A DNA stretch of 64,000 nt from Dehalococcoidia bacterium. Its GTDB lineage: Bacteria; Chloroflexota; Dehalococcoidia; Bin125. Location of the stretch: assembly GCA_022828105.1 (NCBI GenBank), contig JAJEJC010000001.1:109471-173470 (forward strand), written 5' to 3'. Below the pieces are notes generated by a model. That model saw only the letters and a list, made by a program, of their open reading frames with translations. It ran no database searches and was not told the origin of the DNA. The stretch's first letter is position 1. Every line of letters starts with the position of its first letter. Of this stretch, positions 43,279 through 59,522 are shown piece after piece. A program made the position numbers and the translations under genes.

Positions 43279-44571
43279 ATGACCGACTTTGCCAACCTGC
43301 CCGTTGCCGAACCTGCGTCGTTGGGGATCGATCCTGATCGGCTTGCCCGCACCGATGCGCGCATGGCTCAGGCGGTCGAGAACCGCGAAGTGCCCGGCGT
43401 GGTGACCGTGTTGATCCGGCACGGACACCTTGCCCACGTCTCGGCGCACGGCTACCTCGACGCCGGACGGGAGACTCCCTTGCCGTTCGACGCGCTGTTC
43501 CGCATGTACTCGCAGACCAAGCCGGTCACGGCGGCGCTGACGATGCAGTTGCAGGAAGAGGGCGTCTTCTACGTCGACGAGCCGATCACGAAGTGGCTGC
43601 CTGAGTTCGAGCATCGGCAGGTGCTGGCCCCGTTCGATCCGCCCAACAAGGTGCGCGGCGAGGGTCTGCTGATGGGTCAGACGGTACCGATGACAAGGCA
43701 GATCACGATTCGCGATCTGCTGACGATGACCTCGGGTCTGCCTTCGTTCAGCAACATTCCCTCGGCGATGTTCCCGATGCTCGAACCGGCCTGGAGCGGG
43801 ACGGAGTTCGGCATCACCAATCCGGGCGTCGTCGATACGTCGGTTTCGGCGGAGACGCGCGTGCTGCAGATGGCGCAGTTGCCCAACGCGAGGCAGCCAG
43901 GCGCGGCCTGGGAGTACGCCGCCGACTTCGACGTGCTGACCCTGCTGCTCGAACGCGCCGCTGGTCAGAACCTCGACGCGCTGTTCCAGGAGCGTATCTT
44001 CGGCCCGCTCGGGGTCGAAGGCTGCGGCTTCTATTGCCCGCCCGAGGACGCCGATCGCCTCGTCACCAACCACCACTGGTCCGAGACGGACGCGCTCAAC
44101 CCTGTGGAGCGTCCCGAGGACTCGCACAAGGTGCGTGAGTCGGTGGGGCAGCAGATCTCCGGCAACGGCCTCTACGGAGGCGTTTTGATGACGCCTGCGG
44201 CCTACACACGATTCGCCGCGATGCTGCTCAACGGCGGCGAGCTTGACGGTCAGCGCGTGCTGGGTCGGAAGACGATCGAGCTGATGACCTCGAATCATCT
44301 CGGCGCGATTTGCGGCACCGAAATCGACCTGACCGGCCCCGGTTACGGCTTCGGTTTCGGCTACGCGGTCCGCGACCGGATTGCGGGGACGGCCTACCCG
44401 GGCAGCATCGGCACCTACGGCTGGGGCGGCGCGGCGGGGACGTGGTTCTTCGTCGACCCGTCCGAGAACCTGGCCGGCCTCTTCTTCACCCACGTCTTCA
44501 TGTACCAGTTCAACCCGGCCGCGTACCTGGAGACGGACTTCGAGAAGGGCGTCTACGAGGCGTTGATGTAG
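43279..44571 (+). CDS. beta-lactamase/transpeptidase-like serine hydrolase (class C / esterase family)
   Basis: SQTK (SxxK), a PF00144-like architecture and C-terminal GWGGAAGTWFFVDP. Confidence 0.85.
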   Translation: MTDFANLPVAEPASLGIDPDRLARTDARMAQAVENREVPGVVTVLIRHGHLAHVSAHGYLDAGRETPLPFDALFRMYSQTKPVTAALTMQLQEEGVFYVDEPITKWLPEFEHRQVLAPFDPPNKVRGEGLLMGQTVPMTRQITIRDLLTMTSGLPSFSNIPSAMFPMLEPAWSGTEFGITNPGVVDTSVSAETRVLQMAQLPNARQPGAAWEYAADFDVLTLLLERAAGQNLDALFQERIFGPLGVEGCGFYCPPEDADRLVTNHHWSETDALNPVERPEDSHKVRESVGQQISGNGLYGGVLMTPAAYTRFAAMLLNGGELDGQRVLGRKTIELMTSNHLGAICGTEIDLTGPGYGFGFGYAVRDRIAGTAYPGSIGTYGWGGAAGTWFFVDPSENLAGLFFTHVFMYQFNPAAYLETDFEKGVYEALM

Positions 44572-44573
44572 CG

Positions 44574-45014
44574 TCATTCGCGTTCCGGCAGCGATCGCCA
44601 GAGCGCCGCGGCCAGGAAGGGCAGGATGATCACCTGGCCATAGGCGCCGGGCGGCGGCTTGTCGATGTTGAGCGGCTTGGATCGGCCGACGAGGATGCGT
44701 CCGATGTTGTCCAGGAGGTTGATCAACAGGATCAGGGGGATCAGTCCTCGATAGCGGATCAGGGCGAGCCAGGCGAGGCCGGCAAGGAGGAGTTGTTCGA
44801 GTCCCCATTGGGCGAAGATGGCGACGATGTTCTGGCCGCCCGCGACATCGAGGTCTATCCCGGCGATGGAGGCGGCGCCACCGTCTTTGCGAAAGACGTG
44901 GACGCAGCTTCGGAAGGTGATGACGAGGCAGAGGAAGAGGTAGAACCTGGTGACCCAGGGATCGCCCTGATAGGTCTTGGCGTCGTCGGGGAGGATTGAA
45001 CTGACGGATCGCAC
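44574..45014 (-). CDS. hypothetical membrane protein
   Basis: Three to four hydrophobic segments with no recognisable family. Confidence 0.4.
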   Translation of the reverse strand: MRSVSSILPDDAKTYQGDPWVTRFYLFLCLVITFRSCVHVFRKDGGAASIAGIDLDVAGGQNIVAIFAQWGLEQLLLAGLAWLALIRYRGLIPLILLINLLDNIGRILVGRSKPLNIDKPPPGAYGQVIILPFLAAALWRSLPERE

Positions 45015-45018
45015 TTGT

Positions 45019-45348
45019 TCAGTCCTCCATTCCCTCGGTCAACGATTCTGGAATGTCTCTGGCAGTGTGCAGGACTCGCCAGAGATCGATGTGGTTGTCT
45101 TGCTCTACGTAGAAGGCCATGTACGGAAAGCCGCCAATCGGCCACGCGCGAACGCCGGGTAACCGCTGCCGGCGTCCGATTCGTGGCGATCCAGAGGAGG
45201 GAAGCTGGCCGATATGCAGGTATGCCTGTTCCAAGGCATCAATAAAGGATCGCGCTACGGACGCTGACGCTTCAGCCAGATAGTGTGCGATGATCTGATC
45301 GATGTCGGCCATCGCCCTGTCCCTGGGAACAATTGGCTTCCCGCTCAC
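45019..45348 (-). CDS. parE: type II toxin ParE/RelE family
   Basis: About 100 aa (IDQIIAHYLAEASASVARSFIDALEQAYLHIGQLP...WPIGGFPYMAFYVEQDNHIDLWRVLHTARD). The upstream gene overlaps its start by 4 nt. Confidence 0.72.
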   Translation of the reverse strand: MSGKPIVPRDRAMADIDQIIAHYLAEASASVARSFIDALEQAYLHIGQLPSSGSPRIGRRQRLPGVRAWPIGGFPYMAFYVEQDNHIDLWRVLHTARDIPESLTEGMED

Positions 45349-45584
45349 GACGGTTCATGCTCGCGGACACGCCTACGAAGCTCTTCAAAGTACTCCGCAT
45401 CCGCCACGCCCGCTGGCGGTGAGTTCATACCCTCAATGAGCAGATCACGCAGCTTGTGAGTGTCTTGCTCTCTGCGAATCAGGTCGCGGATGTATTCGCT
45501 GGATGAGGCATAGCCTCGCTCTGCTACCTGCTGATCTACGAAGGACTTTTGTGACTCGGGGAGGGAGACATTCATTGTGCTCAT
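45345..45584 (-). CDS. parD: type II antitoxin ParD (CopG/RHH)
   Basis: MSTMNVSLPESQKSFVDQQVAERGYASSSEYIRDLIRRE is the ParD/COG3609 pattern. The start was chosen at the internal ATG 45584. Confidence 0.72.
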   Translation of the reverse strand: MSTMNVSLPESQKSFVDQQVAERGYASSSEYIRDLIRREQDTHKLRDLLIEGMNSPPAGVADAEYFEELRRRVREHEPS

Positions 45585-45654
45585 TGGATCACTCTCTTGG
45601 CATTGGCAAAGATTGACAATCTTTGCCAAGAACGGTTCATCACAGGGTACATCT

Positions 45655-46827
45655 TCAGTCCCCGATGGTCCGGGTTGGGAAGTCCCTGGCGGGGTGGGCT
45701 TTAAGGACTTCTTCGTCGAGGTCGATGCCGAGGCCGGGGGTTGTGGGGAGGGCGATGTGGCTGTCTTCGACCTGGAAGGCGGGTGTGGCGGCCTGTTGGC
45801 CCCAGGGTTCGAAGTTGACGAAGTACTCGGTGATGATGAAGTTGGGCATCGTGGCGGCGGCGTTGAGGGTTGAGGCGAGGGCGACGGTGGTCGAGTTGTA
45901 GTTGTGCGGGGCGACGGCGACGAAGTAGACCTCCGCCATAGCGGCGATTTCGGTCAGTTCCTTGATCCCGCCGACGTTGGCGACATCGGGGTTGATGATC
46001 TCGGCGGCGCGCTGCTCGAAGGCCTCGCGGAATTCGAACTTGGTGTAGAGCTCCTCGCCGGTGACGGTTGGGATGTTGATCTGCGCGGTGGCGGCGGCGA
46101 GGGCGGTCATGTTCTCGGCCCAGACCGGCTCCTCGAACCAGAACGGCTCGTACTCCTCGACCATCTGCGAGAGTCGGACGGCGTTGGACGGGCTGAGGCG
46201 GCGGTGGATTTCCAGCAGCACGTCGACGTCGGGTCCGACGGCCTCGCGCACAGCGCGCACGCGCTCGGCGGCGAGGCGGAGTTCCTTCATCCCGACGTAG
46301 CTCCGCCACTTGCCGGGCACGGGGTCGAACTTGAGGGCGGTGAAGCCTCGCTCGACCATGGCGCGTGCGCGGGCCTGGAGCTCATCGATGTCATCCATCC
46401 TGGCCCAGCCGTTGGCGTAGACGCGCAGCCGATCGCGGACCGCGCCGCCGAGGAGCTGGTGGACGGGCAGGCCCGCGCGCTTGCCGGCCAGGTCCCACAT
46501 TGCCTGTTCGACGCCGGAGACGGCGGAGTAAAGGTCCATCGCGCCGCGGCGGTTGCCGAAGTCGTTGTAGATCGCGTCAGTCCAGGGCTTGATCCGGGCG
46601 GCGTCCCAGCCGACGATGTAGCGCCGCATGGCGTCGAGGTGGGCGGTGATCTGGATGTCGCGGTCGGACTGGGTGTAGCACTCGCCCCAGCCGTGCAGAC
46701 CGTCGGCGGTTTCGAGTCGGACGAAGCAGAGGTTCTTGCCGGCGATGTAGCGGTCGGGCTGGCCGCTGTCCGGCGCGGTTGGGTGAACGAGGTAGTAGCG
46801 CAGGTCGACGATGGTGGAGTCGGTCAT
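45655..46827 (-). CDS. enolase-superfamily enzyme (mandelate racemase / muconate lactonizing enzyme family dehydratase)
   Basis: MR/MLE N- and C-terminal domains (KFDPVPG...LLEIHRRL...FEEP...). The start is ATG 46825-46827; the upstream part of the track ORF is a translated repeat. Confidence 0.86.
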   Translation of the reverse strand: MTDSTIVDLRYYLVHPTAPDSGQPDRYIAGKNLCFVRLETADGLHGWGECYTQSDRDIQITAHLDAMRRYIVGWDAARIKPWTDAIYNDFGNRRGAMDLYSAVSGVEQAMWDLAGKRAGLPVHQLLGGAVRDRLRVYANGWARMDDIDELQARARAMVERGFTALKFDPVPGKWRSYVGMKELRLAAERVRAVREAVGPDVDVLLEIHRRLSPSNAVRLSQMVEEYEPFWFEEPVWAENMTALAAATAQINIPTVTGEELYTKFEFREAFEQRAAEIINPDVANVGGIKELTEIAAMAEVYFVAVAPHNYNSTTVALASTLNAAATMPNFIITEYFVNFEPWGQQAATPAFQVEDSHIALPTTPGLGIDLDEEVLKAHPARDFPTRTIGD

Positions 46828-46878
46828 TGGGGGCTCGCAATCAGTTGGGGCCGGGTCGCTCATACGATATCGGCGTGT

Positions 46879-46938
46879 GGGGCAGCCCCCCTCTGCCTTC
46901 GGCATCTCCCCCCGCCTGACGGCGGGGGGAGAGGGGAA
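46879..46938 (+). repeat. GC-rich REP/MITE-like element, canonical copy (GGGGCAGCCCCCCTCTG-GCCTTCGGC-ATCTCCCCCCGCCTGACGGCGGGGGGAGAGGGGAA)
   Basis: Seen directly; located upstream of the enolase-superfamily gene. Confidence 0.85.
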
Positions 46939-47101
46939 TAGGCGGGGACGCGGGAGGGCGGTCCGCGCCGACATCGTGGTCGTCAAGCGGGCACGGGGCG
47001 CTGAAGAGCGCGTCGTAGAGCAGGCGCTGGCGGTCGGTTGGAAAAAACGGCGTTCAGCGTGCAGCTGCTCGACTACGCCCCGCAGCGGCCAATCTGCGGG
47101 A

Positions 47102-47476
47102 TTAGGGCGGTTCATCATCGTCATGGTTGGAGCCGTCCTCGTCTTCCGGTTCGTCGCTGGCGATGCCGAAGTGCGCTTCGGCGCGTGCGATTTCTTCTTC
47201 GGTCGGGGGCGAGCCGTTCTGAATCTCAACGACCCGTTTGTAGCCGGGGCTGATCTCCTCGGGGACTTCATTGGCGTCGTTGTGCAAGGCCGCGCGGGCG
47301 GTGTCGTAGGCGAGCCTGGCTTCGTAGTGGGCCTGGGCGTAGAGACCCTTGATGTGGGCGAGGGCTTTGGTGGCGCTGTGCTGGACGTAGGCGGGGCCGT
47401 TGGTGGCCTGGTGTCGGAGTTGGTCGATGATGGCGTCGTTGGTGAAGGGGAGGGGTGGGTTGGCGGCATGGGACAT
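47102..47476 (-). CDS. hypothetical small protein with an acidic C-terminal tail
   Basis: MSHAANPPLPFTND...ASDEPEDEDGSNHDDDEPP, with GGAG 10 nt upstream of ATG 47476. It lies co-directionally immediately downstream of the nuclease gene. Confidence 0.4.
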   Translation of the reverse strand: MSHAANPPLPFTNDAIIDQLRHQATNGPAYVQHSATKALAHIKGLYAQAHYEARLAYDTARAALHNDANEVPEEISPGYKRVVEIQNGSPPTEEEIARAEAHFGIASDEPEDEDGSNHDDDEPP

Positions 47477-47570
47477 GAGGTGAACTCCTGCTCGTGGTGT
47501 CAGGGGTTCGATCTTATGCACACTGGTGTTCGATGTGGGGTGTGAGGGTGTGGTGGGGTTGACTGGAGGA

Positions 47571-48537
47571 CTATTCATGTGTGATCGAGACGCTGTCGTT
47601 GGCGACGATGATGAAGTTGGTGGAGCCGGGGATGACGCGCCCGTCGCGCTCGGCGTAGGCGAGCCAGCGGACGCCGCTCCACTTCCAGAGCGCGGCGACG
47701 CTGTAATCGGTCAACAGCGAGAAGAGATAGGCCGCGGTCCAATGCGGGGCTGACTCGAGGGACGGAGTGGGGACGGAAGCCGCGGATTCGCCGGTCCGAG
47801 CGCTGCGGAGGGAGATGGGTGCGGTTGTTGCGTCGGAAGACGTTGACGTGGTGGTCTGGCTGTCCTGGTCCACCGTGATGGCGGCGCAATCACGGGCCAG
47901 TGCCGCTTCATTAGCCAGGCGCTCCGCGGGATCGATCAACAGTCCGTAGTTTGCCTTGACCTGGATGGTGATCGTGGCAATGTGCTTGCGCTGGGCGCAA
48001 CTGCCGCCGCTCCACTCAGCGAGATCATGGTCGGATTTGCTGATGTTGGTACTGGCCAGCAGACACCATTGATTGAGCGGATCGTTGGCGAACTGGCGCT
48101 TTTGGGCGGCGGTCCAGGTCGAGGCGCTGGAATCGTAGGCTTCCTTCAGGGCGACGATGTGATCGACGTGTTCGGATGAAGCGCAGCCGAGGCGGGCACG
48201 GGCGGCGCTGGAGTTGTAACTCCAGTTGTCGCGGTCGTAGCCGGTGGAGGAGGTGGGGCCTGTGCCTGAGGATCCGGTCGATGTACCAGGCCAAAGCGGG
48301 TTGGATTCGCAGCCGACGCCGTCTCCGTCGCGGTCGTGTCCATGACCATCGATCACCTTGTAGGGATAGTGGCTGGCGCAGTTGCCGTCAGCCGAGATAT
48401 GCGCTACCCCCCCCCCCCCCACTTAACGATGCGTTTACAAAGGCAGCCATTCCGGCGACGAGCCCGACGCCGACGAGCAATGCAAGACGAACTGTGCGGG
48501 GTCGGCTGATGTTTGCGCGTGCGTGGCTGCTGACCAT
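47571..48537 (-). CDS. secreted Excalibur + DUF1524/HNH-like nuclease, interrupted by a frameshift at a G14 homopolymer
   Basis: The 5' frame (48537-48421) encodes the Sec signal peptide MVSSHARANISRPRTVRLALLVGVGLVAGMAAFVNAS-LSGGGGG and stops at 48388. The +1 frame from 48422 encodes GGGGVAHISADGNCASHYPYKVIDGHGHDRDGDGVGCE (Excalibur DxDxDGxxCE), then EHVDHIVALK...NDPLNQW...NISKSDHD (His-Me finger). Tract 48407-48420. Confidence 0.7.
48407..48420 (-). repeat. homopolymeric tract (G)14 on the coding strand at the signal-peptide/mature-protein junction
   Basis: Fourteen consecutive C on the plus strand. A tract length of 13 or 16 would restore one ORF. Confidence 0.95.
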
Positions 48538-48628
48538 GTTGTGCTCCGGTTGGTTTGAGGGACGTTTAGGGAAGCATCGCACAGGATTGGGTCGTCTGTT
48601 GTGCGGTTGACTTGGGTGCCGCGTGAGC

Positions 48629-48720
48629 GGGGAGCCCCCCTCTGTCCCCTGCCTACGCAGGGGCAGGCTCCTACGGGACATCTCCCCCCGCCTGACAGCG
48701 GGGGGAGAGGGGAAGGGGGG
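48629..48720 (+). repeat. REP/MITE-like element, long variant with nested hairpins (GTCCC[CCCTGC-CTAC-GCAGGG]...GGGAC, then CATCTCCCCCCGCCTGACAGCGGGGGGAGAGGGGAAGGGGGG)
   Basis: Seen directly in the divergent intergenic region between the nuclease gene and the 48749 gene. Confidence 0.85.
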
Positions 48721-48748
48721 ACTGCGGCTAACTGTTAGGGTGCGGGCC

Positions 48749-49228
48749 ATGTCTTTGTTTGAGTCCTCCCAGTGTGAGTTTGAGACTGCGTTTCAGCTTC
48801 TTCCGGAGATCAGCCCGGAGGCGCCGGACTGGGGCGGTCGGTTCCGTCGGGAGATGCCGTCGGTCCCGTCGCCGTACTACGGGGTCAATGTGGTGGACGT
48901 TCGGCGGGAGCACTACGACGCCGTGTTCCAGAACATCCAGGGCCAGGTGCAGGGCGCGGAGCAGCTATTCGGCGGGCGGCTGCATTTCTTTTCGGCGACG
49001 GACTACGGGGAGATCCGGCGCGTCATCTTCATCATCTACTTCGAGAGCTTTCCCGCGACCGAGAGCGTGCTTGAGATGCTGCGCGCAGGCGGAATGGATG
49101 TGGGCGACGACGCGAGCGAGATTCCCGACATCTGGACAGGGTTCGACCTCTGGACCGATTTCACTCGTCTAGCGGAGGGCTATACGTGGTGGATCGCGCC
49201 TGCGATGGCGGAGCACGAGTCGCCGTAG
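48749..49228 (+). CDS. hypothetical cytoplasmic protein (about 160 aa)
   Basis: ATG 48749 (MSLFESSQCEFETAFQLLPEISPEAPDWGGRF...). No family recognised. The track ORF extends upstream into the repeat. Confidence 0.5.
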   Translation: MSLFESSQCEFETAFQLLPEISPEAPDWGGRFRREMPSVPSPYYGVNVVDVRREHYDAVFQNIQGQVQGAEQLFGGRLHFFSATDYGEIRRVIFIIYFESFPATESVLEMLRAGGMDVGDDASEIPDIWTGFDLWTDFTRLAEGYTWWIAPAMAEHESP

Positions 49229-49250
49229 GGTTTCGGTGGCGGAGCGGGAC

Positions 49251-49333
49251 GGGGATGCCCCTTGAGCCTTCGGCATTTCCCGCCGCTGCTCGGGCGGAGA
49301 GGGAGCGGGTCCCTGTGGTCACAGGGACTAGGA
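49251..49333 (+). repeat. degenerate REP/MITE-like copy with CCCTGTGGTCACAGGG hairpin
   Basis: Its GCCTTCGGCAT module is shared with the canonical copies. Confidence 0.6.
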
Positions 49334-49355
49334 GTCGTCCAGCCTAGGCCGGCGT

Positions 49356-49415
49356 GGGGGAGCCCCCCTCTGTCACTACGTGACATCTCCCCCCGCCTTC
49401 GGCGGGGGGAGATGG
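49356..49415 (+). repeat. REP/MITE-like element (GGGGAGCCCCCCTCTG-TCACTACGTGA-CATCTCCCCCCGCCTTCGGCGGGGGGAGATGG)
   Basis: Located between convergent genes (48749 gene and the vWA gene). Confidence 0.85.
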
Positions 49416-49426
49416 AGCCGAGCGGG

Positions 49427-51280
49427 TTAGCCGGCGTAACCGGGGTCTTCGGATTGGCGCTCCTCGGCGACGGCGCCCATGGCCTGGAGGAGCTGGGCGA
49501 AGTCGCGGCCTGCCTGTGAGTCGAGGATGGTCGCCGGGAGATCTCGATATCGCCGGGCGATCTCGTTGAGGTTTTCGGCAGCGAGTTCCATCGTTTCCCG
49601 ACTCAAGCCGTCCTGACCGAACCAGCTATAGCGGTCGGCGGCGAGGGCGACGACTGTGCCGAGGTCGAGCAGGTCGTCGTCGCCGAAGCGCGAGACGGCG
49701 CTGATCATCTCCACCTGCTGGCGGTTCGACTCTTCCGACATCGGCGTCAGCCAGCGCAGCTCGATCTCACCGAGATCTACGACGTCGTCGTTTAGCGCAT
49801 CGCCGGTCAGTTCGACCTCGTAGAAGATGGTCGTGGCCGAGCCCATCGGGATCTCTGCGAACTCCCGGCGGTCCTGTTCAAAGTTGCGGTCGGCGGTGAC
49901 CCGGTTCTCGTAGCCGACGAGACGCCAGCCGGCGACGGCGTGTTCGTCCCAGCGGACCTGGGCGCGGGCCTGGTCGGCGAATGGGACCGAGAGTGCGAGC
50001 CAGTTCTCGCGGCTGAAGGTTGAGCGGGCCTGATCAACGTCCTGTAGATAGCGGTACCAGCCGTTGCCGTACTGGGCGAGCTGTTCGAGCAGCACGTCGT
50101 TGTAGTTGGCGATGCCCACGCCGACCGTGATCAGTCGTAACGGGTTGGAGTCGTTGCGATCTTCGGCCGTGCGCAGAATGGTGAACGGGTCGGTGGCGTC
50201 GACGTTGGCGACGCCGTCGGACATGAGGATCACGTAGTTGTAGGCGTCGGGCCGCTCGCGGCGGATGTCGTCGGCGAGTTCGACGCCGAGGTTGAGTCCG
50301 GCCTGGACATTGGTGGAGTCGAGCGGCGTCAACCGGTCGATGACGCGCTGGATGCCGCGGTCGCCCGGGCGCTCGTGCCTGGCGTGGTCGACGATGCCGT
50401 TGGAGAAGAGCACGACGGCAATGCGGTCGTCGTCGCCGAGCCCGCGGCGGATCGATTCGGCCGCAGCGCGGGCAATCTCGACGCGGTTGCCGTCGCGCAT
50501 GGAACCGGAGGAGTCAAGCACGAGAGTGACGTTGAGCGGGGTGTTGTCGACGAACTCGGGCGCCTGCGTGGCGATGCGGACGAGGTGGAGGTCGTCGTTG
50601 AGCGGGTGCTCGACGATGTCGGCGGTGACGGCGAAGCTGTCATCGACATCGGGACCGTCATAGCGGTAGTTGAAGGCGTTGATCCATTCCTCGGCGCGGA
50701 CCAAGGCGGGATCGATGGCATAGCCGTTCTGGACCCAGTTGAGGGCGAGGAAGTACGAGGTGCGGTCGACGTCGAGGGAGAAGGTGGAGGTGTCGTCCTG
50801 GTCGGTGTCGCGCCAGCCGAGGGTCGGATAGTCCTCGAAGTTGGTCGCACCGGGTCGGGGACGGAGAGTGACCTGCTCCTGTTCGTCCTCCGGGTATGGC
50901 CCGCCGGAGTTGGGGAAGGCGGCGCTGCTATCCTCCTCCGCTTCCTCCTGCATGGCCTGTGCTTGGGCCTGTTCTTGGGCCTGTTCTTGGGCCTGCTGCT
51001 GCATGGCCTGCTCTTGCTGCTGCATGGCCTGCTGTTGTTGCTGCACGGCCTGCTCTTGCTCTTGCTGGTACTGGACATGCTGGGGTTGCTGGGATTCCTG
51101 TTGCTGCGCCTGCGCGACCGCGGTCGGCTGCTCCGCTTGCGGCTCGGCCTGCTGGACGGACTGCCGGGCGTCCTGATCGTCGCTGCACGCCGCGAGCAGG
51201 ATGGCGGCGGCGATGATCGGCAGGGCGATTGCTGCGGCGCTGCGTTTGAGGAATCTGCGGGTTCGCTGGATCGTTGTCAT
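49427..51280 (-). CDS. lipoprotein with a Gln-rich low-complexity linker and a von Willebrand factor A domain (YfbK-like)
   Basis: Signal peptide plus lipobox (ILLAAC) and the MIDAS motif DSSGSM (VTLVLDSSGSMRDGNRVE). The linker is AVQQQQQAMQQQEQAMQQQAQEQAQEQAQAQAMQEE. Confidence 0.8.
   Translation of the reverse strand: MTTIQRTRRFLKRSAAAIALPIIAAAILLAACSDDQDARQSVQQAEPQAEQPTAVAQAQQQESQQPQHVQYQQEQEQAVQQQQQAMQQQEQAMQQQAQEQAQEQAQAQAMQEEAEEDSSAAFPNSGGPYPEDEQEQVTLRPRPGATNFEDYPTLGWRDTDQDDTSTFSLDVDRTSYFLALNWVQNGYAIDPALVRAEEWINAFNYRYDGPDVDDSFAVTADIVEHPLNDDLHLVRIATQAPEFVDNTPLNVTLVLDSSGSMRDGNRVEIARAAAESIRRGLGDDDRIAVVLFSNGIVDHARHERPGDRGIQRVIDRLTPLDSTNVQAGLNLGVELADDIRRERPDAYNYVILMSDGVANVDATDPFTILRTAEDRNDSNPLRLITVGVGIANYNDVLLEQLAQYGNGWYRYLQDVDQARSTFSRENWLALSVPFADQARAQVRWDEHAVAGWRLVGYENRVTADRNFEQDRREFAEIPMGSATTIFYEVELTGDALNDDVVDLGEIELRWLTPMSEESNRQQVEMISAVSRFGDDDLLDLGTVVALAADRYSWFGQDGLSRETMELAAENLNEIARRYRDLPATILDSQAGRDFAQLLQAMGAVAEERQSEDPGYAG
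50950..51110. repeat. in-frame tandem DNA repeats (GGCCTGTTCTTG x3; CTGCATGGCCTGCTCTTGCTG x2) encoding the Q-rich linker
   Basis: Seen directly. Confidence 0.8.
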
Positions 51281-51390
51281 GGTGGCCTCCTGACCGACGT
51301 GTGCAGGGGCGTCTGAGTTGCGACCGTCAGTCGCCCCGTTGGGGAGTTAGACGTCAGAGGGTCGGAGATGGTTCCCGGCGGCTGGTGAGC

Positions 51391-51566
51391 GGGGCGGGGC
51401 GCCCCCTCTGTCACTACGTGACATCTCCCCCCTGGAAGGGGGGAGAGGCAGACGGATGCCCTCCCCCCCCCGGCATGGAGGCGGGGGGAGATGCCGAAGG
51501 CAGACGGATGCCATCTCCCCCCGCCTGACGGCGGGGGGAGACGCCGAAGGCAGAGGGGGTTCGCCT
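51391..51566. repeat. nested array of at least three REP/MITE-like units in alternating orientation
   Basis: GCCCCCTCTGTCACTACGTGACATCTCCCCCCTGGAAGGGGGGAGAGGCAGACGGATGCC...GGAGGCGGGGGGAGATGCCGAAGGCAGACGG...CATCTCCCCCCGCCTGACGGCGGGGGGAGACGCCGAAGGCAGAGGGGG, in the divergent intergenic region between the vWA gene and the ThuA-like gene. Confidence 0.85.
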
Positions 51567-51606
51567 ATCATTGGCGCACTTGCTGACTACTGAGAGAGAG
51601 GGCACC

Positions 51607-52422
51607 ATGGCCAGCGCTCCGACCCGTGTACATGTAGTGACTGGTGGGTTTCCGCCCGGATCGCATGGCGGGCATGACATGGACTTCGCGCGGCTGAAGT
51701 TGCTGGAGATGCTGTACGAGGACGGCAACGTCCGCGCGACGACGGGCAACGACTTCACCGATATGTGGAAGTGGCTGCAGGTGACCGACGTGCTGGTCAC
51801 GTACACGGCCGGTCCGTACGCCGACGATCCGCAGAATGAGATCCTGCGCGACTGGATTGGCAATGGCGGGCACTGGGTTGGCTTGCACGGGACATCGGGC
51901 GGCAAGGCCGCGCGCATGGGCGACGGCAAGCGGCAGATGGTGAAGATGGACCATCATGAGACGCTCGGCGGCTTCTTCATCAACCACCCGCCGATCAAGC
52001 GCTTCACGGTGGACGTCCAGAACGTGAACTCGCCGATCCTTGAGGGTCTGCCGGAGCAGTTCGACGTGATCGACGAGCCGTACATGATTGAGATCACGGA
52101 CCGTCCGAACACGGACATCCTGCTGACGGCGCCGATCGGTCCGGACAACTGGCCCGACTTCGGCTTCGATTACGACGAGGACACGGCGATCGAGGACGAC
52201 GGCGTGACGCGGGTGTTCGGCTACACGCGCGGGATCGGCGAGGGCGGGGTGTGCTATATCGCGCTGGGTCACTGCCACTCGCCGCTGACCAACTCGCAGC
52301 CGTTCGTCGAGGACAACGCGAAGGACGAGAACGGGGACAATCCTCGGACGCTGCGGTTTACGTGGGAGACGGAGGAGTACGCACAGTTGCTGCGGAACAC
52401 GCTGAGCTGGTCGAGGGGCTGA
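51607..52422 (+). CDS. ThuA-like (type-1 glutamine-amidotransferase-like) protein
   Basis: VHVVTGGFPPGSHGGHD...WLQVTDVLVTYTAG...GGHWVGLHG match the ThuA (PF06283) pattern. Start ATG 51607. Confidence 0.78.
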   Translation: MASAPTRVHVVTGGFPPGSHGGHDMDFARLKLLEMLYEDGNVRATTGNDFTDMWKWLQVTDVLVTYTAGPYADDPQNEILRDWIGNGGHWVGLHGTSGGKAARMGDGKRQMVKMDHHETLGGFFINHPPIKRFTVDVQNVNSPILEGLPEQFDVIDEPYMIEITDRPNTDILLTAPIGPDNWPDFGFDYDEDTAIEDDGVTRVFGYTRGIGEGGVCYIALGHCHSPLTNSQPFVEDNAKDENGDNPRTLRFTWETEEYAQLLRNTLSWSRG

Positions 52423-52452
52423 TTGACCGTCAACCGGTCGGCGTTTCTTGTT

Positions 52453-52510
52453 GGGAGCCCCCCTCTGCCTTCGGCATCTCCCCCCGCCTGACGGCGGGAG
52501 GAGAGGGGAA
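52453..52510 (+). repeat. REP/MITE-like element (3' arm mutated to GGCGGGAGGAGAG) followed by two further GC hairpins to about 52612
   Basis: Located between convergent genes (ThuA-like and the alpha/beta hydrolase). Confidence 0.8.
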
Positions 52511-52637
52511 GAAGGCAATAGGCAACTCCCCTTGCGGGGCGCGGGGAGAGCAGTAGGGGGAACCGAGCGGGTCCCCCTGAGCAAGTCAGGGGCAGGCTCT
52601 GCGTGAAGCAGGGACTTGGAGCCGGGCGGTGACTTTG

Positions 52638-53660
52638 CTATTCGCCGATGACGGGTTCGGGGAGGACGTCGAGGAGGGGGGCGAAGGGGTCGAGTTCTTC
52701 TTCGGCGAGGCGGGCGTCGGGTGCGGCGACGGGCGTGACGACCTCCGGGTGCTGGCTGAAGAGGGCGGCGAAGATTGACTCGGCGTGCTCGATGAAGCCG
52801 AGCGAGCCGACGCCGTCGACGTAGATCGGGCGGCAGTCGGGCAGTTCGGAGGCGATGCGGCGGCCCATCTGGATGGGATGGGATTCGTCGAGCATGGCGT
52901 GCCAGAGCATGACCGGGAAGCGAACGTCGCCGAGTTCGAAACCCCAGGGCTCGAGATGGCGGCGGGCTTCGTCGCCGGCTGCGGCGGGTCCCTGGCGGAA
53001 CGCTTCGCGCAGGTCGGTGATGCGGTTGGTGAGCGTGGGCTCGGAGCCGAGGATGACGCCGTCGACGGGGGGCATGCGCTTGATCTGCTCGGCGACGACA
53101 CGGTCAGGCCGCTTCTGGACCGAGCGTCCGTAGCCGCGCATCCAGAGCGAGGCGAGTCGGCGGGACTTGAGGAAGAGGGTGTAGATCAGGCGCCACTCGT
53201 AGGACATGCCTTCGAGCACGTCGCCAGAGTCGATGGCGCCGAGTCCGGAGATGAGGGCGACGCGGTGCAGCCGCTCGGGCATCTTGAGGGCGCAGGCGAG
53301 CGTGTAGGGCAGGCCGGCGGAGATGCCGGCTACGGAGAACTTCTCGAACTCGAGGTAGTCGGCGAGCTGGCGCAGGTCGGCGGGCCAATCGAGGATGGTG
53401 CGCTCGGCCAGCGGGTCGGAGTAGCCGAAGCCGGGCCGCTCGGGCGCAATCAGTCGGACGCCGGCGCGGGCGGCTCCCGGCGCCATGACGGCGGCCGCCA
53501 TGCGTGAGGAAGGGATGCCGTGGTGAAAGAAGAGGGGCTCGCCCCTGGGGTCGCCGTACTCGGCCCAGCTCAACGCTCGGCCATCGGACAGCCGCATCAC
53601 ACTATGTGGCGGCTCGGGGTCGTCGTCGTCGATGCGGCTGGAGGGCTCGGCGATTGTCAT
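52638..53660 (-). CDS. alpha/beta-fold hydrolase
   Basis: Nucleophile elbow GISAG and the general fold pattern. Start ATG 53658-53660 (MTIAEPSS); the track ORF extends into the repeat. Confidence 0.8.
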   Translation of the reverse strand: MTIAEPSSRIDDDDPEPPHSVMRLSDGRALSWAEYGDPRGEPLFFHHGIPSSRMAAAVMAPGAARAGVRLIAPERPGFGYSDPLAERTILDWPADLRQLADYLEFEKFSVAGISAGLPYTLACALKMPERLHRVALISGLGAIDSGDVLEGMSYEWRLIYTLFLKSRRLASLWMRGYGRSVQKRPDRVVAEQIKRMPPVDGVILGSEPTLTNRITDLREAFRQGPAAAGDEARRHLEPWGFELGDVRFPVMLWHAMLDESHPIQMGRRIASELPDCRPIYVDGVGSLGFIEHAESIFAALFSQHPEVVTPVAAPDARLAEEELDPFAPLLDVLPEPVIGE

Positions 53661-53696
53661 GTAGTGAGATCGTATCACTCGCTGCGAAGAGAGCGT

Positions 53697-53756
53697 GGGG
53701 AGCCCCCCTCTGTCTCTACGAGACATCTCCCCCCGCTTCGCGGGGGGAGAGGGAAC
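53697..53756 (+). repeat. REP/MITE-like element (GGGGAGCCCCCCTCTG-TCTCTACGAGA-CATCTCCCCCCGCTTCGCGGGGGGAGAGGGAA)
   Basis: Located between two co-directional genes. Confidence 0.85.
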
Positions 53757-53761
53757 CGGAG

Positions 53762-55510
53762 TTAGTCGGTGGGTTCGGAGACGAGGAGTTCGGCTTCGAC
53801 GTCGTCGGCGAGGTTTTCGATGACGGGGGTCTCGCCCAGGGCTCCGTCCTCGACCTGCATGTCGAAGGCGTCGGCGAAGTAGCGGTAGGACTGATACTGG
53901 TCGCCGTACTTCATGTGGCCGGCGGTGTGGTGGGCGGCGGCCATGAGCAGGGTGTTGCGCGACTCGGACGAGGTGCGGCGGTAGTCCTCCAGCATGCAGA
54001 GGCCGATTTCCTGATTGTGCGGGTCATTGCCCTGCTTGGCGATGCCATTGGCGAGGGTTTCGACCAGCGGTCCGTCGTCGTAGCCGAGGCTGAGGTAGTT
54101 CTCGACCCAGAAGACGGACTGCTCCATGTCGAGCGAGAGCATGGCGTCATTGAGTTCGCTGAGCGCCTGGCCCTGGGAGACCTGCGTCGCTTCGCCGCCC
54201 TTGTCGTAGGCGGCGAAGTAGGTGGCTGCGCCACGGGTCTTGTTGCCCTTGGAGTTGAGCGCCCAGTGCGCGCACTGGTTGATGAAGTTGGCGGCGACGA
54301 AGAGCAGCTTGGTCTTGTGCGGGTGGTCGAAGTGTTCGTAGAACCAGCCGAGGGTGTTGCAGTATTCGTAGCCGTGCTGGGGCATGGAGAAGTTGGCCGG
54401 CAGGCCGCATTCGAGGACGACCCGGGCGGCGGCGATCTGGATGGCGTCGAGGATCGACTTGGGCGAGCGTCCGGCCTTGAGCAGGTCGGAGAGCAGGGCG
54501 ATGTAGGACTCCTGCGGCTCGTTGATGATCGTGCGGATGACCATCTCCGACTCGGGGCCGGAGAGCGGGATCTGGTTGGTGAAGAGTTCCTGGTCGCGGG
54601 TCGACCTGGTGGTCGCGGAGAGAGAGGAACTGGGCGCCTCCTCTTCGAGGTGGTACATCATGATCTGGCAGGCGGACTCGTAGAGCGAGTACCAGCGCGG
54701 GCCGACGGCGATGTCGGGGACGCCGGCGTAGAGGACGTGGTGGGCGTTCTCCCAGCCGATGGCGCGTCCCAGCTCGACGGTGCTGCGGGCGCGGAACGAC
54801 TTGTGTCCGGTGGTGTAGGAGCGGTTCCAGTACATGCGGTCCTGAACGTCGATCAGTCCGGCAAAGACGAGTTGGGCGAGGATTTCCTCGCGGCGCTCGG
54901 GGAACTGCTCCCAGAGGCCGAGGAAGAGGGCGTACTCGTCGTCGACGTGTCCGTACTGGACCATCGTGAGCCAGGTGTTGAGGCCTTCCTCGAGTGAGCC
55001 GTCCCAGCGGGTCGGCTGCTGATCGTCCCAGTGCGCAGCGGGCGGGGCGGGGCCGTCGGGGTACTGCTCGGGGTCGTAGGTGCGGCGCGAGTAATGGCCG
55101 GGCATCCTGCCCTTGAGCTGATTCCAGATGTCGAGCCCGGTGGGCACGTACCAGGCGGTCTGGCTCAGCGGCAGGTGCCGCAGTTCTTCGGAGACGTAGT
55201 TCTGCAGGTTGAGCGTGGCGCGGGAGGAGAGCAGACAGTGGTCGTTGTTGACGAAGCGGACGATGCCCTCGTCGATGCGCTGGTGATAGGGAACGTGGGT
55301 GTAGGGCGCGTGGGCGCGGATCGTCTCTGAGAGGATCTCGGTGGTGGGCCGCCCGTCCTTGATCAGGTCGAATGCCTGCTGCAGGGCGGAGGTGTTGTCG
55401 CGCTCGACGATGGTCTTGCGATAACGGTCGTAGGCGGCGGCGGTCTTGCGGTCCATGTAGGCGGGGGATGCGCCGCTGTCACCGGTGCCGGATGTCTTGT
55501 GCAGGCTCAT
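53762..55510 (-). CDS. hypothetical protein, 583 aa, mainly alpha-helical, no family recognised
   Basis: Start ATG 55508-55510 (MSLHKTSGTGDSGASPAYMDRK...). Long stop-free ORF with coding-like composition. The 60 codons upstream are a translated repeat. Confidence 0.6.
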   Translation of the reverse strand: MSLHKTSGTGDSGASPAYMDRKTAAAYDRYRKTIVERDNTSALQQAFDLIKDGRPTTEILSETIRAHAPYTHVPYHQRIDEGIVRFVNNDHCLLSSRATLNLQNYVSEELRHLPLSQTAWYVPTGLDIWNQLKGRMPGHYSRRTYDPEQYPDGPAPPAAHWDDQQPTRWDGSLEEGLNTWLTMVQYGHVDDEYALFLGLWEQFPERREEILAQLVFAGLIDVQDRMYWNRSYTTGHKSFRARSTVELGRAIGWENAHHVLYAGVPDIAVGPRWYSLYESACQIMMYHLEEEAPSSSLSATTRSTRDQELFTNQIPLSGPESEMVIRTIINEPQESYIALLSDLLKAGRSPKSILDAIQIAAARVVLECGLPANFSMPQHGYEYCNTLGWFYEHFDHPHKTKLLFVAANFINQCAHWALNSKGNKTRGAATYFAAYDKGGEATQVSQGQALSELNDAMLSLDMEQSVFWVENYLSLGYDDGPLVETLANGIAKQGNDPHNQEIGLCMLEDYRRTSSESRNTLLMAAAHHTAGHMKYGDQYQSYRYFADAFDMQVEDGALGETPVIENLADDVEAELLVSEPTD

Positions 55511-55580
55511 GGAGCGCTCCAGGCAGTTGGAACTGTTGAATCTGTTGCGCAGTATAGCGAGCATGGGTACGGGGATCGGT

Positions 55581-55676
55581 GGGGAGCCCTCCTTCAGCCT
55601 TTGGCAGCTTCCCCCCAGAGGGGGGAAGCGGGGGACCAGCCGGCGGCTCTCCTCCAGAGGAGGAAGCGGGGGAACG
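55581..55676 (+). repeat. variant GC-rich double-hairpin element (CTTCCCCCC-AGA-GGGGGGAAG and TCCTCC-AGA-GGAGGA)
   Basis: Shares the 5' GGGGAGCCC box with the main family. It lies in the divergent intergenic region between the 583-aa gene and the DUF1800 gene. Confidence 0.6.
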
Positions 55677-55793
55677 ATCTGCATTTGGCGATGCTGCAAT
55701 GTCCTATATTGCGGCTGTAGAGCGAATGCCGGGGCTTGACAGCCTCTGCGTACTCGCGGACGGTAACTTCTGAAGCGTTTGGAAGGTGATTTG

Positions 55794-57194
55794 ATGTCTG
55801 ACGATCAACGAGCGCTGGTCGCTCACCTGATGCGTCGCGCAGGAGCCGGCGCGACACCGGCCGAACTGGACGCGTTGGCGGAACGGCCGTATGACGAGAT
55901 TGTCGAAGACCTGATCAATCCGCCGCCGACTGCGGACGAGGACGACGATCTGATCTTCCGCTACTTCCCCTCGCTGGCCAACTCGGACACGCCCTGGCCG
56001 TGGAGCGCGCGCTGGATCTACTGGATGGTGAACTCGGAGTCGCCGCTGCGCGAGAAGATGGCGTTGTTCTGGCACCACGTGTTCGCGACGGCCTGGTTCA
56101 AATCGGAGCACGGGCCATCAATGCCGGTGCATGTCCAGATGTTCCGCGACCATGGCCTGGACAACATGCGCGTGCTGCTCGGTGAGCTGTCACGCGACCC
56201 GGCGATGATCTTCTGGCTGGACAACGTCGAGTCGGTCAAGGGCGCGCCGAACGAGAACTACGGGCGCGAGCTGTTGGAACTGTTCTCGATGGGCGTGGGC
56301 AACTACACCGAGGACGACATCAAGGCGGCGGCGTACAGCTTTACGGGCTGGACCTTTGAGCAGCCGATTCCGCTCTATCCGCACGGCGGCTACCCGTCGC
56401 ACTTCGTCTATCGCGAGGATCTGCACGACGACTCGGAGAAGACGTTCCTGGGCCAGACCGGCCAGTGGAACGGCGACGACATCATCGACATCATCGTGCA
56501 GCAGCCGGCGACGGGCCGCTTCATCGGCCGGCACCTGTACAACTTCTTCGTCAAAGACGAGCCGGGCGTGTCGGCCTGGTCAGTGACCGAGCCGGGCAAC
56601 CCGGGGGCGGTCGACGAATTGGCGTCGGCGTTTGCAGAGTCGAACGGCGACCTGCGCGCGGTGATGCGGGTGCTGTTCAACGCCGAATGGTTCAAGCAGG
56701 AGCGCTACGAGCGCGTCAAGTGCCCGGCCGAATGGGTGGCGGGCGCGTACAAGCTGTCGGGCAAGCTGGGCATGCCGCAGCCGGAGATGTGGAATCTGCA
56801 CCTGACGATGGGCGCGATGGGTCAGACGCTGATGGACCCGCCCTCAGTCGAGGGCTGGCACACCGGCAAGGAATGGATCGACGGCGGCACGCTGATGGAG
56901 CGGATCAACTTCGCCTCCAAACTGGTCTCCGATCCGTCGACGCCGGTGGTGCAGGAGCTGGTCAGCCGGCTGCAGGAGCGGGGCGCGAGCAGTCCCGACG
57001 AGCTGGTGGACGCGGCGCTCGATATCGCCGGACCGCTGGCCGTATCGGACAACACGCGCGCGGCGCTGCTCGAAGCGGCGTCGGCGGGCGGCGACCTGTC
57101 CTACGGCAGCGACGAGGATCGCGACGCAGTCGGCGAGCGCGCGGCCCAGGCGCTGCGCCTGGTGATTGCATCGCCCGAGTACCAGTTCGCGTAA
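55794..57194 (+). CDS. DUF1800 family protein
   Basis: The DUF1800 N-terminal signature (LVAHLMRRAGAGATPAEL) runs throughout. Start ATG 55794 with SD GGAAGG. No signal peptide. Confidence 0.85.
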   Translation: MSDDQRALVAHLMRRAGAGATPAELDALAERPYDEIVEDLINPPPTADEDDDLIFRYFPSLANSDTPWPWSARWIYWMVNSESPLREKMALFWHHVFATAWFKSEHGPSMPVHVQMFRDHGLDNMRVLLGELSRDPAMIFWLDNVESVKGAPNENYGRELLELFSMGVGNYTEDDIKAAAYSFTGWTFEQPIPLYPHGGYPSHFVYREDLHDDSEKTFLGQTGQWNGDDIIDIIVQQPATGRFIGRHLYNFFVKDEPGVSAWSVTEPGNPGAVDELASAFAESNGDLRAVMRVLFNAEWFKQERYERVKCPAEWVAGAYKLSGKLGMPQPEMWNLHLTMGAMGQTLMDPPSVEGWHTGKEWIDGGTLMERINFASKLVSDPSTPVVQELVSRLQERGASSPDELVDAALDIAGPLAVSDNTRAALLEAASAGGDLSYGSDEDRDAVGERAAQALRLVIASPEYQFA

Positions 57195-57248
57195 ACCGGA
57201 CATTCAGACGAACACGCCTACGAACACGCAACGGAACGGAACACGTCA

Positions 57249-58403
57249 ATGAGCGGCAACGGACACAAGGATCCCGTCCTGGTCATCGTCCAGCTTTCGG
57301 GCGGGAACGACTTCATGAACACGTTGGTGCCGTACACCAACGGTCACTACTACGACTCGCGGCCGCTGGTCGGCGTGCCCGAGGACGAGGTGATGCCGAT
57401 CAACGAGACGCTAGGGTTCAACCCGGCGGCGGAGCGGCTGAAGGGCATGTACGACGCCGGCGATGTGGCGGTGATCCAGGGGATCGGATATCCGAACTCG
57501 TCGCGGTCGCACTTCCGCGGCATGGACATCATGCACACCTGCGAGCCGGACCGGATCTCGACCGAGGGCTGGGTGGCCAAGCTGATCCAGCGGCTCGACC
57601 CGGAGTCGGCCAATCCGCTGACGGGCGTGAACATCGGACGCGGTCTGCCGCGGGCGATGGCGGCGCCGGGCGTGACGGCGACGTCGGTGGGCGACCTGGA
57701 CAACTACGGTCTGATGCCGGACATCCAGGCGGAAGAGGATCGCAACCGCGACCTGGAGATCTTCAAGCGGATGTACACGCCGGCGATCGGCGCGGGGATG
57801 GTGATGGACTACCTGCGCCAGACCGGGACCGACTCGCTGGCCGGCGCGGACCTGCTGGCCCCGGTGCCGGGGATGTACGAGTCCTCGGTCGAGTACGGCG
57901 CGAATCCGATTGCCAAGGCGCTGCGCGACGTAGCACGGATTCACACGGCCGGTCTGGGCACGCGCGTGTTCTACACGAATCACATCGGTTACGACACGCA
58001 CTCGCACCAGCCGCCGGTGCATCCAGGGCTGCTGCGCGACGTCTCGGGGGCGCTGGACGACTTTATGACCGACCTGCGCGAACACGACGCGGCGGAGGAA
58101 GTCTCGATTCTCGTCTTTACCGAGTTCGGGCGGCGGATGAAGGACAACGGCTCGGGGACCGACCACGGCTCCGGGGGCGGCGCGTTCATCATCGGCGAGC
58201 ACGTCAAGGGCGGCCTCTACGCCGAGTACCCGTCGATTGATCCGAAGGACTGGCTGAACGGCGAAGACCTCTACCACACGATCGACTTCCGCGGCATCTA
58301 CGGCACCATGCTGGAGCAGTGGATGGGCATCGAGCCCGAGGAGATTGTGGTCGGAGATTTCGAGCAGGTCCAGCCGTTCGAGCGGACGATGCTGGCGAAC
58401 TAG
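57249..58403 (+). CDS. DUF1501 family protein (sulfatase/alkaline-phosphatase-like)
   Basis: PVLVIVQLSGGNDFMNTLVPY is the signature DUF1501 start, followed by HFRGMD and GTDHGSGG. An in-frame TAA immediately upstream rules out an N-terminal signal peptide. Confidence 0.85.
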   Translation: MSGNGHKDPVLVIVQLSGGNDFMNTLVPYTNGHYYDSRPLVGVPEDEVMPINETLGFNPAAERLKGMYDAGDVAVIQGIGYPNSSRSHFRGMDIMHTCEPDRISTEGWVAKLIQRLDPESANPLTGVNIGRGLPRAMAAPGVTATSVGDLDNYGLMPDIQAEEDRNRDLEIFKRMYTPAIGAGMVMDYLRQTGTDSLAGADLLAPVPGMYESSVEYGANPIAKALRDVARIHTAGLGTRVFYTNHIGYDTHSHQPPVHPGLLRDVSGALDDFMTDLREHDAAEEVSILVFTEFGRRMKDNGSGTDHGSGGGAFIIGEHVKGGLYAEYPSIDPKDWLNGEDLYHTIDFRGIYGTMLEQWMGIEPEEIVVGDFEQVQPFERTMLAN

Positions 58404-59507: not shown

Positions 59508-59522
59508 TGAGCCGATTCCCTT

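Follow-up and report, generated by a model that had tools for sequence, protein, structure and literature searches.

What are the short repeats that recur between the genes of a 64,000-nt stretch of a Dehalococcoidia genome (contig JAJEJC010000001.1; hereafter, the window), and why does one of their hairpins change its sequence while remaining paired? A preliminary description of this DNA had taken compensatory base changes in that hairpin as a sign of selection on structure, either cruciform DNA or an RNA hairpin, and had argued against duplicated junk and for a functional element, possibly a non-coding RNA (ncRNA) or a processing or termination signal. Our analysis confirmed that the repeat is a real, interspersed, non-coding DNA family. 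We consider it somewhat better than an even bet (about 55%) that this family is built on the plan of the bacterial intrastrand-triplex motifs BoxC, PIT and TMECO, and that its fold would matter in single-stranded DNA (ssDNA).

The unit is intergenic, about 55–60 nt long, and is made up, in order, of module A (CCCCCCTCT), hairpin B, pyrimidine arm Y2 (TCTCCCCCC), a variable loop, and purine arm R (GGGGGGAGA). Hairpin B begins with TG and ends with CA, and its interior is variable. Y2 is often lengthened by GC or GCC, and the C6/G6 stem runs past the tracts with G-C pairs; GGGGAA is the terminal sequence of approximately half of the copies. A covariance model (CM) trained on 15 copies recognised 12 window copies, of which nine belong to the + strand and three to the − strand, and CTCCCCCC occurs 18 times there against 2.9 expected. 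A full representative is the + strand copy at 49357–49420 (71.4 bits in the CM search), in which A (CCCCCCTCT) occupies 49363–49371, B (TGTCACTACGTGACA) 49371–49385, Y2 (TCTCCCCCC) 49386–49394, the GCC-TTC-GGC stem extension and loop 49395–49403, and R (GGGGGGAGA) 49404–49412. When folded as ssDNA with ViennaRNA, which computes Watson-Crick pairing only, intact copies form two directly adjacent hairpins (z of −2.8 to −5.0; −23.4 kcal/mol and z of −4.96 for the representative copy). The coordinates and sequences previously quoted for B proved exact, namely TGTCACTACGTGACA at 49371–49385 and 51409–51423 and TGTCTCTACGAGACA at 53711–53725, and TGCCTTCGGCA was found in the two copies to which it had been assigned (46880 and 52452) and also in that at 34165. 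The nested hairpin reported in the 48629 copy is present, and direct reading verified that the 3′ hairpin loops vary over intact C6/G6 stems.

The claim that pairing in B is kept through compensatory changes was checked on copies from other genomes. An exact-pattern scan of species-representative genomes yielded at least 116 loci, and all figures given below for genome loci refer to the matches listed. The 220 instances in this sample carry 69 distinct B sequences, the commonest being TGCCTTCGGCA (61 times) and TGTCACTCCGTGACA (28 times). The majority of the 69, also among those met only once, form hairpins without an unpaired stem position. In a CM alignment of 150 copies from 100 sources (the window and 99 genome loci), 97.5% of the cells are paired. 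One stem position of B is UA in 79 copies, CG in 64, and GC in three, and a second is AU in 43, CG in 29, GC in 10, and UA in three. None of 500 shuffles attained any of the five measures applied, and every slid register was far lower. An independent metagenome sample gave 97.4% paired cells with the identical two positions covarying, and compensated pairs are about 20 times commoner than unpaired intermediates. These data support the covariation of B as genuine, extensive, and replicated. In palindromic elements of Rhizobiales, the left and right B may differ by one base pair, each being internally compensated, which indicates that the local hairpin, and not long-range pairing, is the conserved unit. 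The comparisons thus bear out one part of the claim that structure rather than sequence is preserved, in that they support retention of the folded single-stranded state of B; the RNA reading of that claim is unsupported, as described below.

The first reading of the repeat overlooked a third tract. Module A mirrors Y2, the 5′ arm of the C6/G6 hairpin, rather than complementing it, and this mirroring would place the element in the intrastrand-triplex class. Read on the G-rich strand, the order is Y (TCTCCCCCC)-loop 1-R (GGGGGGAGA)-hairpin B-RH (AGAGGGGGG). Since the third tract mirrors the purine arm, it could lie antiparallel as a reverse-Hoogsteen strand, with G.G-C, A.A-T, and T.A-T triples. 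The layout of the G-rich strand is that of the class II purine motif, and the layout of the C-rich strand is that of the class IV pyrimidine motif. An occasional A in the C-rich third tract corresponds to T on the G-rich strand, which the purine motif allows and the pyrimidine motif does not, and the G-rich strand therefore fits better. An example is the + strand copy at 34165–34222 (CM match), which has B TGCCTTCGGCA and A CCCCCCACT; its RH on the G-rich strand is AGTGGGGGG, and the rule is still obeyed because T.A-T is permitted. Hairpin B is the linker (loop 2), a self-contained stem-loop of 11–35 nt (mostly 11, 14, or 15 nt) that joins the strand ends at the helix end at which R and the third tract come together.

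To examine the frequency of the third tract, all perfect 9-nt homopyrimidine/homopurine hairpins of the loci (about 0.9 Mb) were listed, and a third tract was sought within 65 nt of each. Among hairpins of the main type (F1), 124 of 131 have a perfect 9/9 third tract and 129 match at 8/9 or better. The by-catch of other hairpin types, which the search pattern had not selected, has a third tract of at least 8/9 in 34 of 38 cases, about 24 of them perfect. Random places in the same DNA reach 8/9 or better in 5–9% and a perfect match in 0.2–1.7%. The tract pairings in the by-catch are GGGGGGAAG with GAAGGGGGG, GGGGGAAGG with GGAAGGGGG or GGATGGGGG, GGGAGAGGG with GGGTGAGGG, GGGGAGAAG with GATGAGGGG, and AGGGGGAGG with GGTGGGGGT. 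In a prospective metagenome scan, nothing was fixed but Y, R, and the TG that comes next; the third tract was perfect in 75 of the 140 hairpins and at least 8/9 in 97, against 1.7% and 5.9% expected by chance, and 69 of these 97 have a simple hairpin as the linker, in 46 distinct versions. As a rough control, a scan of viral contigs for the F2 hairpin (see below) returned mostly plain hairpins, with a third tract of at least 8/9 in eight of 39, one of them perfect.

The tracts also change together. On the C-rich strand, the A tract, Y2, and R read CCCCCCTTC, CTTCCCCCC, and GGGGGGAAG in the F2 family, which occurs twice in locus L034 in perfect form and with one mismatch in the window. Two variant families read CCCCCCTTCC, CCTTCCCCC, and GGGGGAAGG, and CCCCTCATC, CTTCTCCCC, and GGGGAGAAG, respectively, and the BoxC type reads CCCTCACCC, CCCTCTCCC, and GGGAGAGGG. 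The window representative of F2 is a diverged + strand copy at 55581–55637 (CM match; A CCCTCCTTC, B AGCCTTTGGCA(G), Y2 CTTCCCCCC, and R GGGGGGAAG), in which all three tracts are jointly altered relative to the main type with one mismatch. In the metagenome alignment A3, the last four positions of A equal R in the parallel register in 99.2% of the cells. Three sequences of this alignment carry a joint change of T to C in A, T to C in Y2, and A to G in R, and the nominal closing pair of B is broken there. The three-tract symmetry and its covariation are demonstrated by these alignments, and we infer from them that the repeats may form triplexes.

The layout has precedents. That of the E. coli BoxC elements was rediscovered in the PIT elements (Hoyne et al. 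2000) and examined under the name TMECO by Holder et al. (2015, PMC4666352), and four intrastrand-triplex classes were defined in the latter study. According to the same source, TMECO oligonucleotides are triplexes as judged by circular dichroism and nuclear magnetic resonance, with melting temperatures of 70–82 °C; TMECO elements are strictly intergenic, their inverted pairs always combine a type A and a type B element, local genomic variability is raised around them, and their reported range is Proteobacteria only (PMC4666352). The window family shares with BoxC/PIT/TMECO the three consecutive purine/pyrimidine tracts in the order Y-R-RH on one strand (class II), the 9-nt G/C-rich tracts, and loops that vary more than the tracts. 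It is likewise strictly intergenic, multi-copy, without a linked transposase in the sampled loci, and unstable at orthologous sites, and it occurs as singlets or as inverted pairs with unlike halves (types A and B in TMECO, short B and long B here). In agreement with class II, the window copies have three consecutive tracts with stems of at least 8 nt (Y TCTCCCCCC, R GGGGGGAGA, and RH AGAGGGGGG), and the third tract is antiparallel-compatible with R with at most one mismatch.

The family differs from TMECO in several respects. The tracts are C6TCT/G6AGA, whereas those of TMECO are CCCTCNCCC/GGGNGAGGG; loop 2 is a covarying hairpin of 11–35 nt instead of 3 nt; and G-C pairs extend the hairpin stem beyond the tracts. 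The hosts are Chloroflexota (Dehalococcoidia and Anaerolineae), with related forms in Rhizobiales, Rhodobacteraceae, Oscillibacter, and Bacteroidales, and orientation is possibly biased with GC skew, which is not reported for TMECO. The window family does not match the TMECO consensus CCCTCNCCC N3-6 GGGNGAGGG N3 GGGNGAGGG, and no true TMECO-type copies were seen in the 64,000-nt window. Loop 2 is longer than the 1–6 nt of ITxF and mostly longer than the 0–10 nt of Hoyne; because a loop limit is a search criterion and not a physical requirement, the element was filed as a variant. The family is most readily interpreted as a hairpin-linked form of an established class, the intrastrand-triplex repeats, in which a covarying hairpin would replace the 3-nt loop 2. 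With the mirror repeats of H-DNA, it shares a homopurine/homopyrimidine mirror symmetry that permits a Hoogsteen or reverse-Hoogsteen third strand. It differs in that the three tracts lie on one strand with a built-in Watson-Crick hairpin, and the fold would therefore need ssDNA and not a supercoiled duplex. A structured hairpin also stands between its two mirror halves.

Genuine BoxC/TMECO-type motifs (CCCTCTCCC-N3-GGGAGAGGG-YTA-GGGTGAGGG) are present in many loci from Chloroflexota metagenome-assembled genomes (L027, L029, L034, L041, L065, L068, L070, L076, L084, L088, L097, L100, L102, and L110). Over 38 nt, the Chloroflexota BoxC copies share 97% identity with those of E. coli (e.g., L117:301–338), which occupy approximately 15 places per E. 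coli genome. This is a near-identity of an intergenic 38-mer across phyla.

In the mechanism that we propose, the Y and R tracts pair as the C6/G6 Watson-Crick hairpin, the third tract would lie antiparallel in its major groove to give G.G-C and A(T).A-T triples, and hairpin B, which is constrained in its pairing and free in its sequence, would serve as loop 2. The fold is probably selected at the level of ssDNA. It would act in transiently unwound ssDNA, for example at replication, rather than in a dedicated RNA, and loss of the fold would keep a copy from persisting or multiplying. A link to replication may be supposed. In the genome sample, singlets are oriented in line with the local GC skew: in 39 of 47 the C-rich strand coincides with the G>C strand, and in 39 of 54 the opposite is true (39/8 versus 15/39, p = 3e-8; p = 5e-10 when counted per locus). 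The association persists within gene-orientation strata, and the logit coefficients for orientation per standard deviation (SD) are 1.9 for GC skew and −0.4 for gene direction. In the window, GC skew rises from about 0 at 12–42 kb to between +0.13 and +0.18 at 44000–58000 regardless of gene direction, and from 46.8 to 55.7 kb nearly every intergenic region holds a + oriented copy. We regard the association of orientation with GC skew as a strong lead and not as a result.

Several observations weigh against the triplex reading. The case for it rests wholly on the symmetry of the sequence, and the C run and TCT of the tracts are of low complexity, so that the mirror symmetry of the main family could be partly coincidental and the argument leans on the smaller variant families. 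The G6 tracts might form G-quadruplex-like folds instead, and the GGGG that follows the purine arm in about half of the copies could pair with A as a three-way junction, which is the minimum-energy fold of the 46880 and 52452 copies. In vivo, the dimethyl sulfate footprint of E. coli TMECO revealed no stable triplex, and the function of these elements is not known (PMC4666352). The GC-skew link was not significant in the 43 metagenome singlets (odds ratio 1.7, p = 0.5), a sample that is underpowered. The copies also favour gene 3′ ends: by approximate counts from a codon versus reverse-codon log-odds caller, which is usable for long genes only, 29 lie between convergent, 43 between tandem, and eight between divergent genes, and in tandem spacers they are mostly antisense, the G-rich strand being the mRNA strand in 30 versus 13 (p = 0.014). 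At the GC content of 66%, sense and antisense frames look alike. The 3′-end preference and the antisense bias together keep an effect at the RNA level conceivable.

Such an effect would be that of a cis-acting mRNA element, namely a 3′-end stabiliser, a terminator lacking a U-tract, or a switch that sequesters a ribosome-binding site, with the two hairpins (B and C) selected as RNA. The placement and strand counts above accord with it, as do the GGGGGGAGAUG carried on the G-rich strand, the position of the G-rich tract 6 nt before a start codon in the 59513 copy, and an internal ATG of the 34165 copy that could start a downstream domain. We nevertheless judge it rather improbable. About 30% of the copies in tandem spacers are oppositely oriented, three window copies lie between divergent genes, and GC skew explains orientation much better than gene direction does. 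RNA stems tolerate G.U, and mismatches are equally rare as G.T (13) and A.C (14), which is unlike RNA stems. In Rfam, the only window match at the gathering threshold is a tRNA elsewhere, with only chance miRNA-like matches at E ≤ 10; no copy is among the terminator-like sites of an intrinsic-terminator scan of the window, and a T-run is lacking in all of them. According to PMC4666352, RNA does not form purine-motif triplexes, and PIT elements are cited there as lacking promoter or terminator activity in E. coli. With these findings and the occurrence of copies in both gene orientations, the earlier suggestion of an ncRNA or a processing or termination signal was not sustained. A binding site for a host protein (a nucleoid protein, gyrase, or a recombinase) in double-stranded or cruciform DNA appears less probable still. 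The tracts, as its recognition sequence, are indeed conserved between phyla, unlike the variable loops and B, and E. coli REP/BIME elements bind gyrase, IHF, and Pol I; however, a reader of duplex DNA needs neither self-complementarity of B through so many sequences nor a mirror instead of an inverted repeat, and we know of no candidate binding protein. It is scarcely credible that the family is duplicated junk, in which the differences in B would be those of a few master copies and the apparent covariation no more than inheritance. A few B types do dominate, TGCCTTCGGCA and TGTCACTCCGTGACA above all, but the 69 distinct B sequences and 46 linkers of the two samples, mostly fully paired even as singletons, contradict the idea of a few master copies. 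In addition, one stem position carries all four bases, each with its complement, unpaired intermediates are some 20-fold rarer than compensated pairs, and orthologous copies are intact while their flanks diverge.

The remaining alternative is a non-autonomous mobile element resembling REP/REPIN or a transposable element of the miniature inverted-repeat type (MITE), whose hairpins B and C would be recognised by an ssDNA-specific HUH/Y1 transposase such as RAYT. Copying of only those copies with intact hairpins would yield the covariation, and the idea is compatible with a triplex layout. High copy number, intergenic location, and gene 3′-end preference speak for it, together with a GC-skew-linked orientation like that of IS200/IS605 elements, the distribution across phyla, and the behaviour of orthologous sites. 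The 34165 copy and its counterpart in L076, with flanks about 80% identical, have the C6/G6 hairpin at the same position in opposite orientation and with a different B; the doublet of L063 is lacking in L078, and one L006 copy is lacking in L050. Many Dehalococcoidia genomes have mainly a head-to-head doublet, roughly 230 nt in length, whose spacer is conserved and whose outer ends are inverted, which is the inverted-doublet arrangement of REP/REPIN; in the window, only the composite at 51396–51566 is of this kind. Rhizobiales loci have A-B-Y2-loop-R modules as MITE-like tail-to-tail pairs of 160–180 nt, also with outer inverted ends. The family further resembles REP/BIME/REPIN in being short G/C-rich intergenic palindromes that form singlets, inverted doublets, and mosaics with other small modules, and pairing is reportedly conserved in REPINs. 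It differs in having two adjacent hairpins and a mirror tract instead of the one imperfect palindrome of REP, and tracts that are near-identical across phyla, whereas REPs are species-specific. No transposase family was enriched when open reading frames (ORFs) were clustered over the 116 listed loci and the window, the recurrent clusters being metabolic paralogs only (CoA-transferase III, luciferase-like monooxygenase, and ABC transporters). E. coli RayT gave no match by phmmer and tblastn in the same DNA (~0.96 Mb), a possible point of difference from REP/RAYT systems, and neither an insertion sequence nor a transposase near any copy was found in the sampled loci. The tested flanking genes are housekeeping genes, and comparison of occupied with empty sites revealed no direct target-site duplication, the intergenic DNA being too diverged for exact borders. 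A transposase would also leave unexplained both the mirror relation of the 5′ tract to the hairpin arm and the covariation of the two, and Holder et al. found no link of TMECO to mobile elements (PMC4666352). We consider mobility of this kind doubtful as the explanation and prefer the intrastrand-triplex plan.

Further comparisons illustrate the dynamics of the family. The orthologous copies of L006 and L050 have identical tracts and stems between flanks that are 84–93% identical. At the orthologous sites of L077 versus L103 and of L033 versus L040, the long B equals the short B plus a nested module ending in GGGGCAGGCT. Among 33 head-to-head doublets from Dehalococcoidia loci, none has the same B in both halves, and 29 combine a short with a long type. 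The genes adjoining paired copies encode MTHFR, an Fe-S assembly protein, an aminotransferase, a peptidase, and a catalase-peroxidase. In Rhizobiales and Rhodobacteraceae (L001, L012, L042, L066, L072, L074, and L081), the same modules occur as palindromic elements of 60–180 nt, whose outermost flanks differ among copies yet stay inverted repeats (e.g., TCTACGGCGCC...GGCGCCGTAGA). The Rhizobiales pairs may be akin to RIME, Sm-repeats, and Bru-RS, the intergenic mosaic or palindromic repeats of Rhizobiales.

A broader proposal, which we put forward only tentatively, is that hairpin-clamped intrastrand triplex elements form a class of DNA repeats across phyla (Chloroflexota, Alphaproteobacteria, and some Firmicutes and Bacteroidota), in which folded ssDNA is selected in vivo and orientation is set by the replication fork. 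If this is true, the covarying linker and the joint variation of all three tracts would amount to the first evidence from evolution that BoxC/PIT-type motifs fold in cells, a point that the biochemistry of TMECO was unable to establish, and the fork would set the orientation so that a very stable G-rich fold avoids the lagging-strand template. BoxC/PIT/TMECO elements, known for some 30 years, form triplexes in vitro, with no demonstrated structure or function in vivo; a hairpin loop rebuilt dozens of times with full compensation, together with joint change of the tracts, provides comparative-genomic evidence for the folded state, and the family supplies a natural "mutant plus compensation" series. 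Searches for triplex motifs with loop-length limits overlook this large and phylogenetically wide set of elements. The repeats also create spurious ORFs and read-through fusions in annotation (e.g., ...PPLSLRDISP... and ...GEMPKAEGG...).

The other window copies vary the same plan. The + strand copy at 46880–46940 (CM match and DNA fold), with B TGCCTTCGGCA and the loop TGAC, is flanked by two − strand genes. That at 48629–48716 (+; CM match), between divergent genes, has an enlarged B with the stem TGTCCC...GGGACA at 48643–48680 and a nested insertion of about 23 nt at approximately 48649–48671, at the end of which stands the conserved GGGGCAGGCT; it holds the nested hairpin CCCCTGC-CTAC-GCAGGGG. 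A degenerate copy (CCCCTTGA-GCCTTCGGC-ATTTCCCGCCGC...GGGCGGAGAG; direct-repeat family D3) at 49252–49308 (+) gave a weak CM match of 18.8 bits. The composite in a divergent intergenic region comprises three units: a + strand copy at 51396–51454 with B TGTCACTACGTGACA and the loop TGGAA (CM match), a partial copy inverted relative to it at 51454–51504 (−; 19.6 bits), and a − strand copy at 51506–51566 that reads ...GGCGGGGGGAGACGCCGAAGGCAGAGGGGG on the + strand (41.6 bits; fold z of −4.49). The copy at 52452–52512 (+; CM match), with B TGCCTTCGGCA, lies between convergent genes and has a z of only −1.66; a single G>A change in its purine arm disrupts one pair. Between two − strand genes, the copy at 53697–53758 (+; 82.1 bits) carries B TGTCTCTACGAGACA, in which CAC/GTG is changed to CTC/GAG with compensation. 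The copy at 59513–59574 (−; 75.2 bits; DNA fold) has B TGTCACTCCGTGACA.

Some of these copies have noteworthy surroundings. The G-rich tract AGAGGGGGG of the 59513 copy (region 59537–59578) ends 6 nt upstream of the ATG at 59576 and could be the ribosome-binding site of that gene. The 34165 copy sits between two complete CoA-transferase III domains in one uninterrupted − strand ORF (32874–35372), where it encodes the linker DRRSPPAKRGEMPKAVGGSP. The L076 ortholog (4668–7181) is likewise open across its oppositely oriented element, as is a similar gene in L055 (2408–5068). This ORF may be a real fusion or read-through, or the downstream gene may start at the ATG within the element. Just before the 52452 copy, a terminator-like hairpin with a T-rich tail (52423–52441) follows the stop of a ThuA-like gene (52422); should this hairpin be a genuine terminator, termination there would not require the repeat. 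A small module containing GGGGCAGGCT is also free-standing at 52564–52625, and a related GAGCGGGTCCC...GGGAC hairpin lies at 49303–49335. The intergenic regions of the window look like mosaics of several hairpin modules.

A peptide-coding minigene, CRISPR, and attC were considered as identities of the repeat and rejected, as was a UNCG tetraloop, because the loops are triloops closed by C-G. A literature search with the literal repeat sequence returned unrelated papers only. Elsewhere in the window, a gene that weakly matches GmrSD_C (47571–48422, possibly to 48537) has its reading frame broken by a run of 12 C at 48408–48420, which may represent a frameshift, a phase-variable tract, or a mistake in the assembly. 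Tandem 21-nt CAG/CTG-rich repeats at 50943–51065 give a Gln-rich low-complexity stretch in a von Willebrand factor A-domain gene (49427–51280, −). Two adjacent − strand paralogous genes (37025–38707 and 38774–40510) are 74–77% identical in DNA at a spacing of 1806 nt and account for the direct-repeat families D1 and D2.

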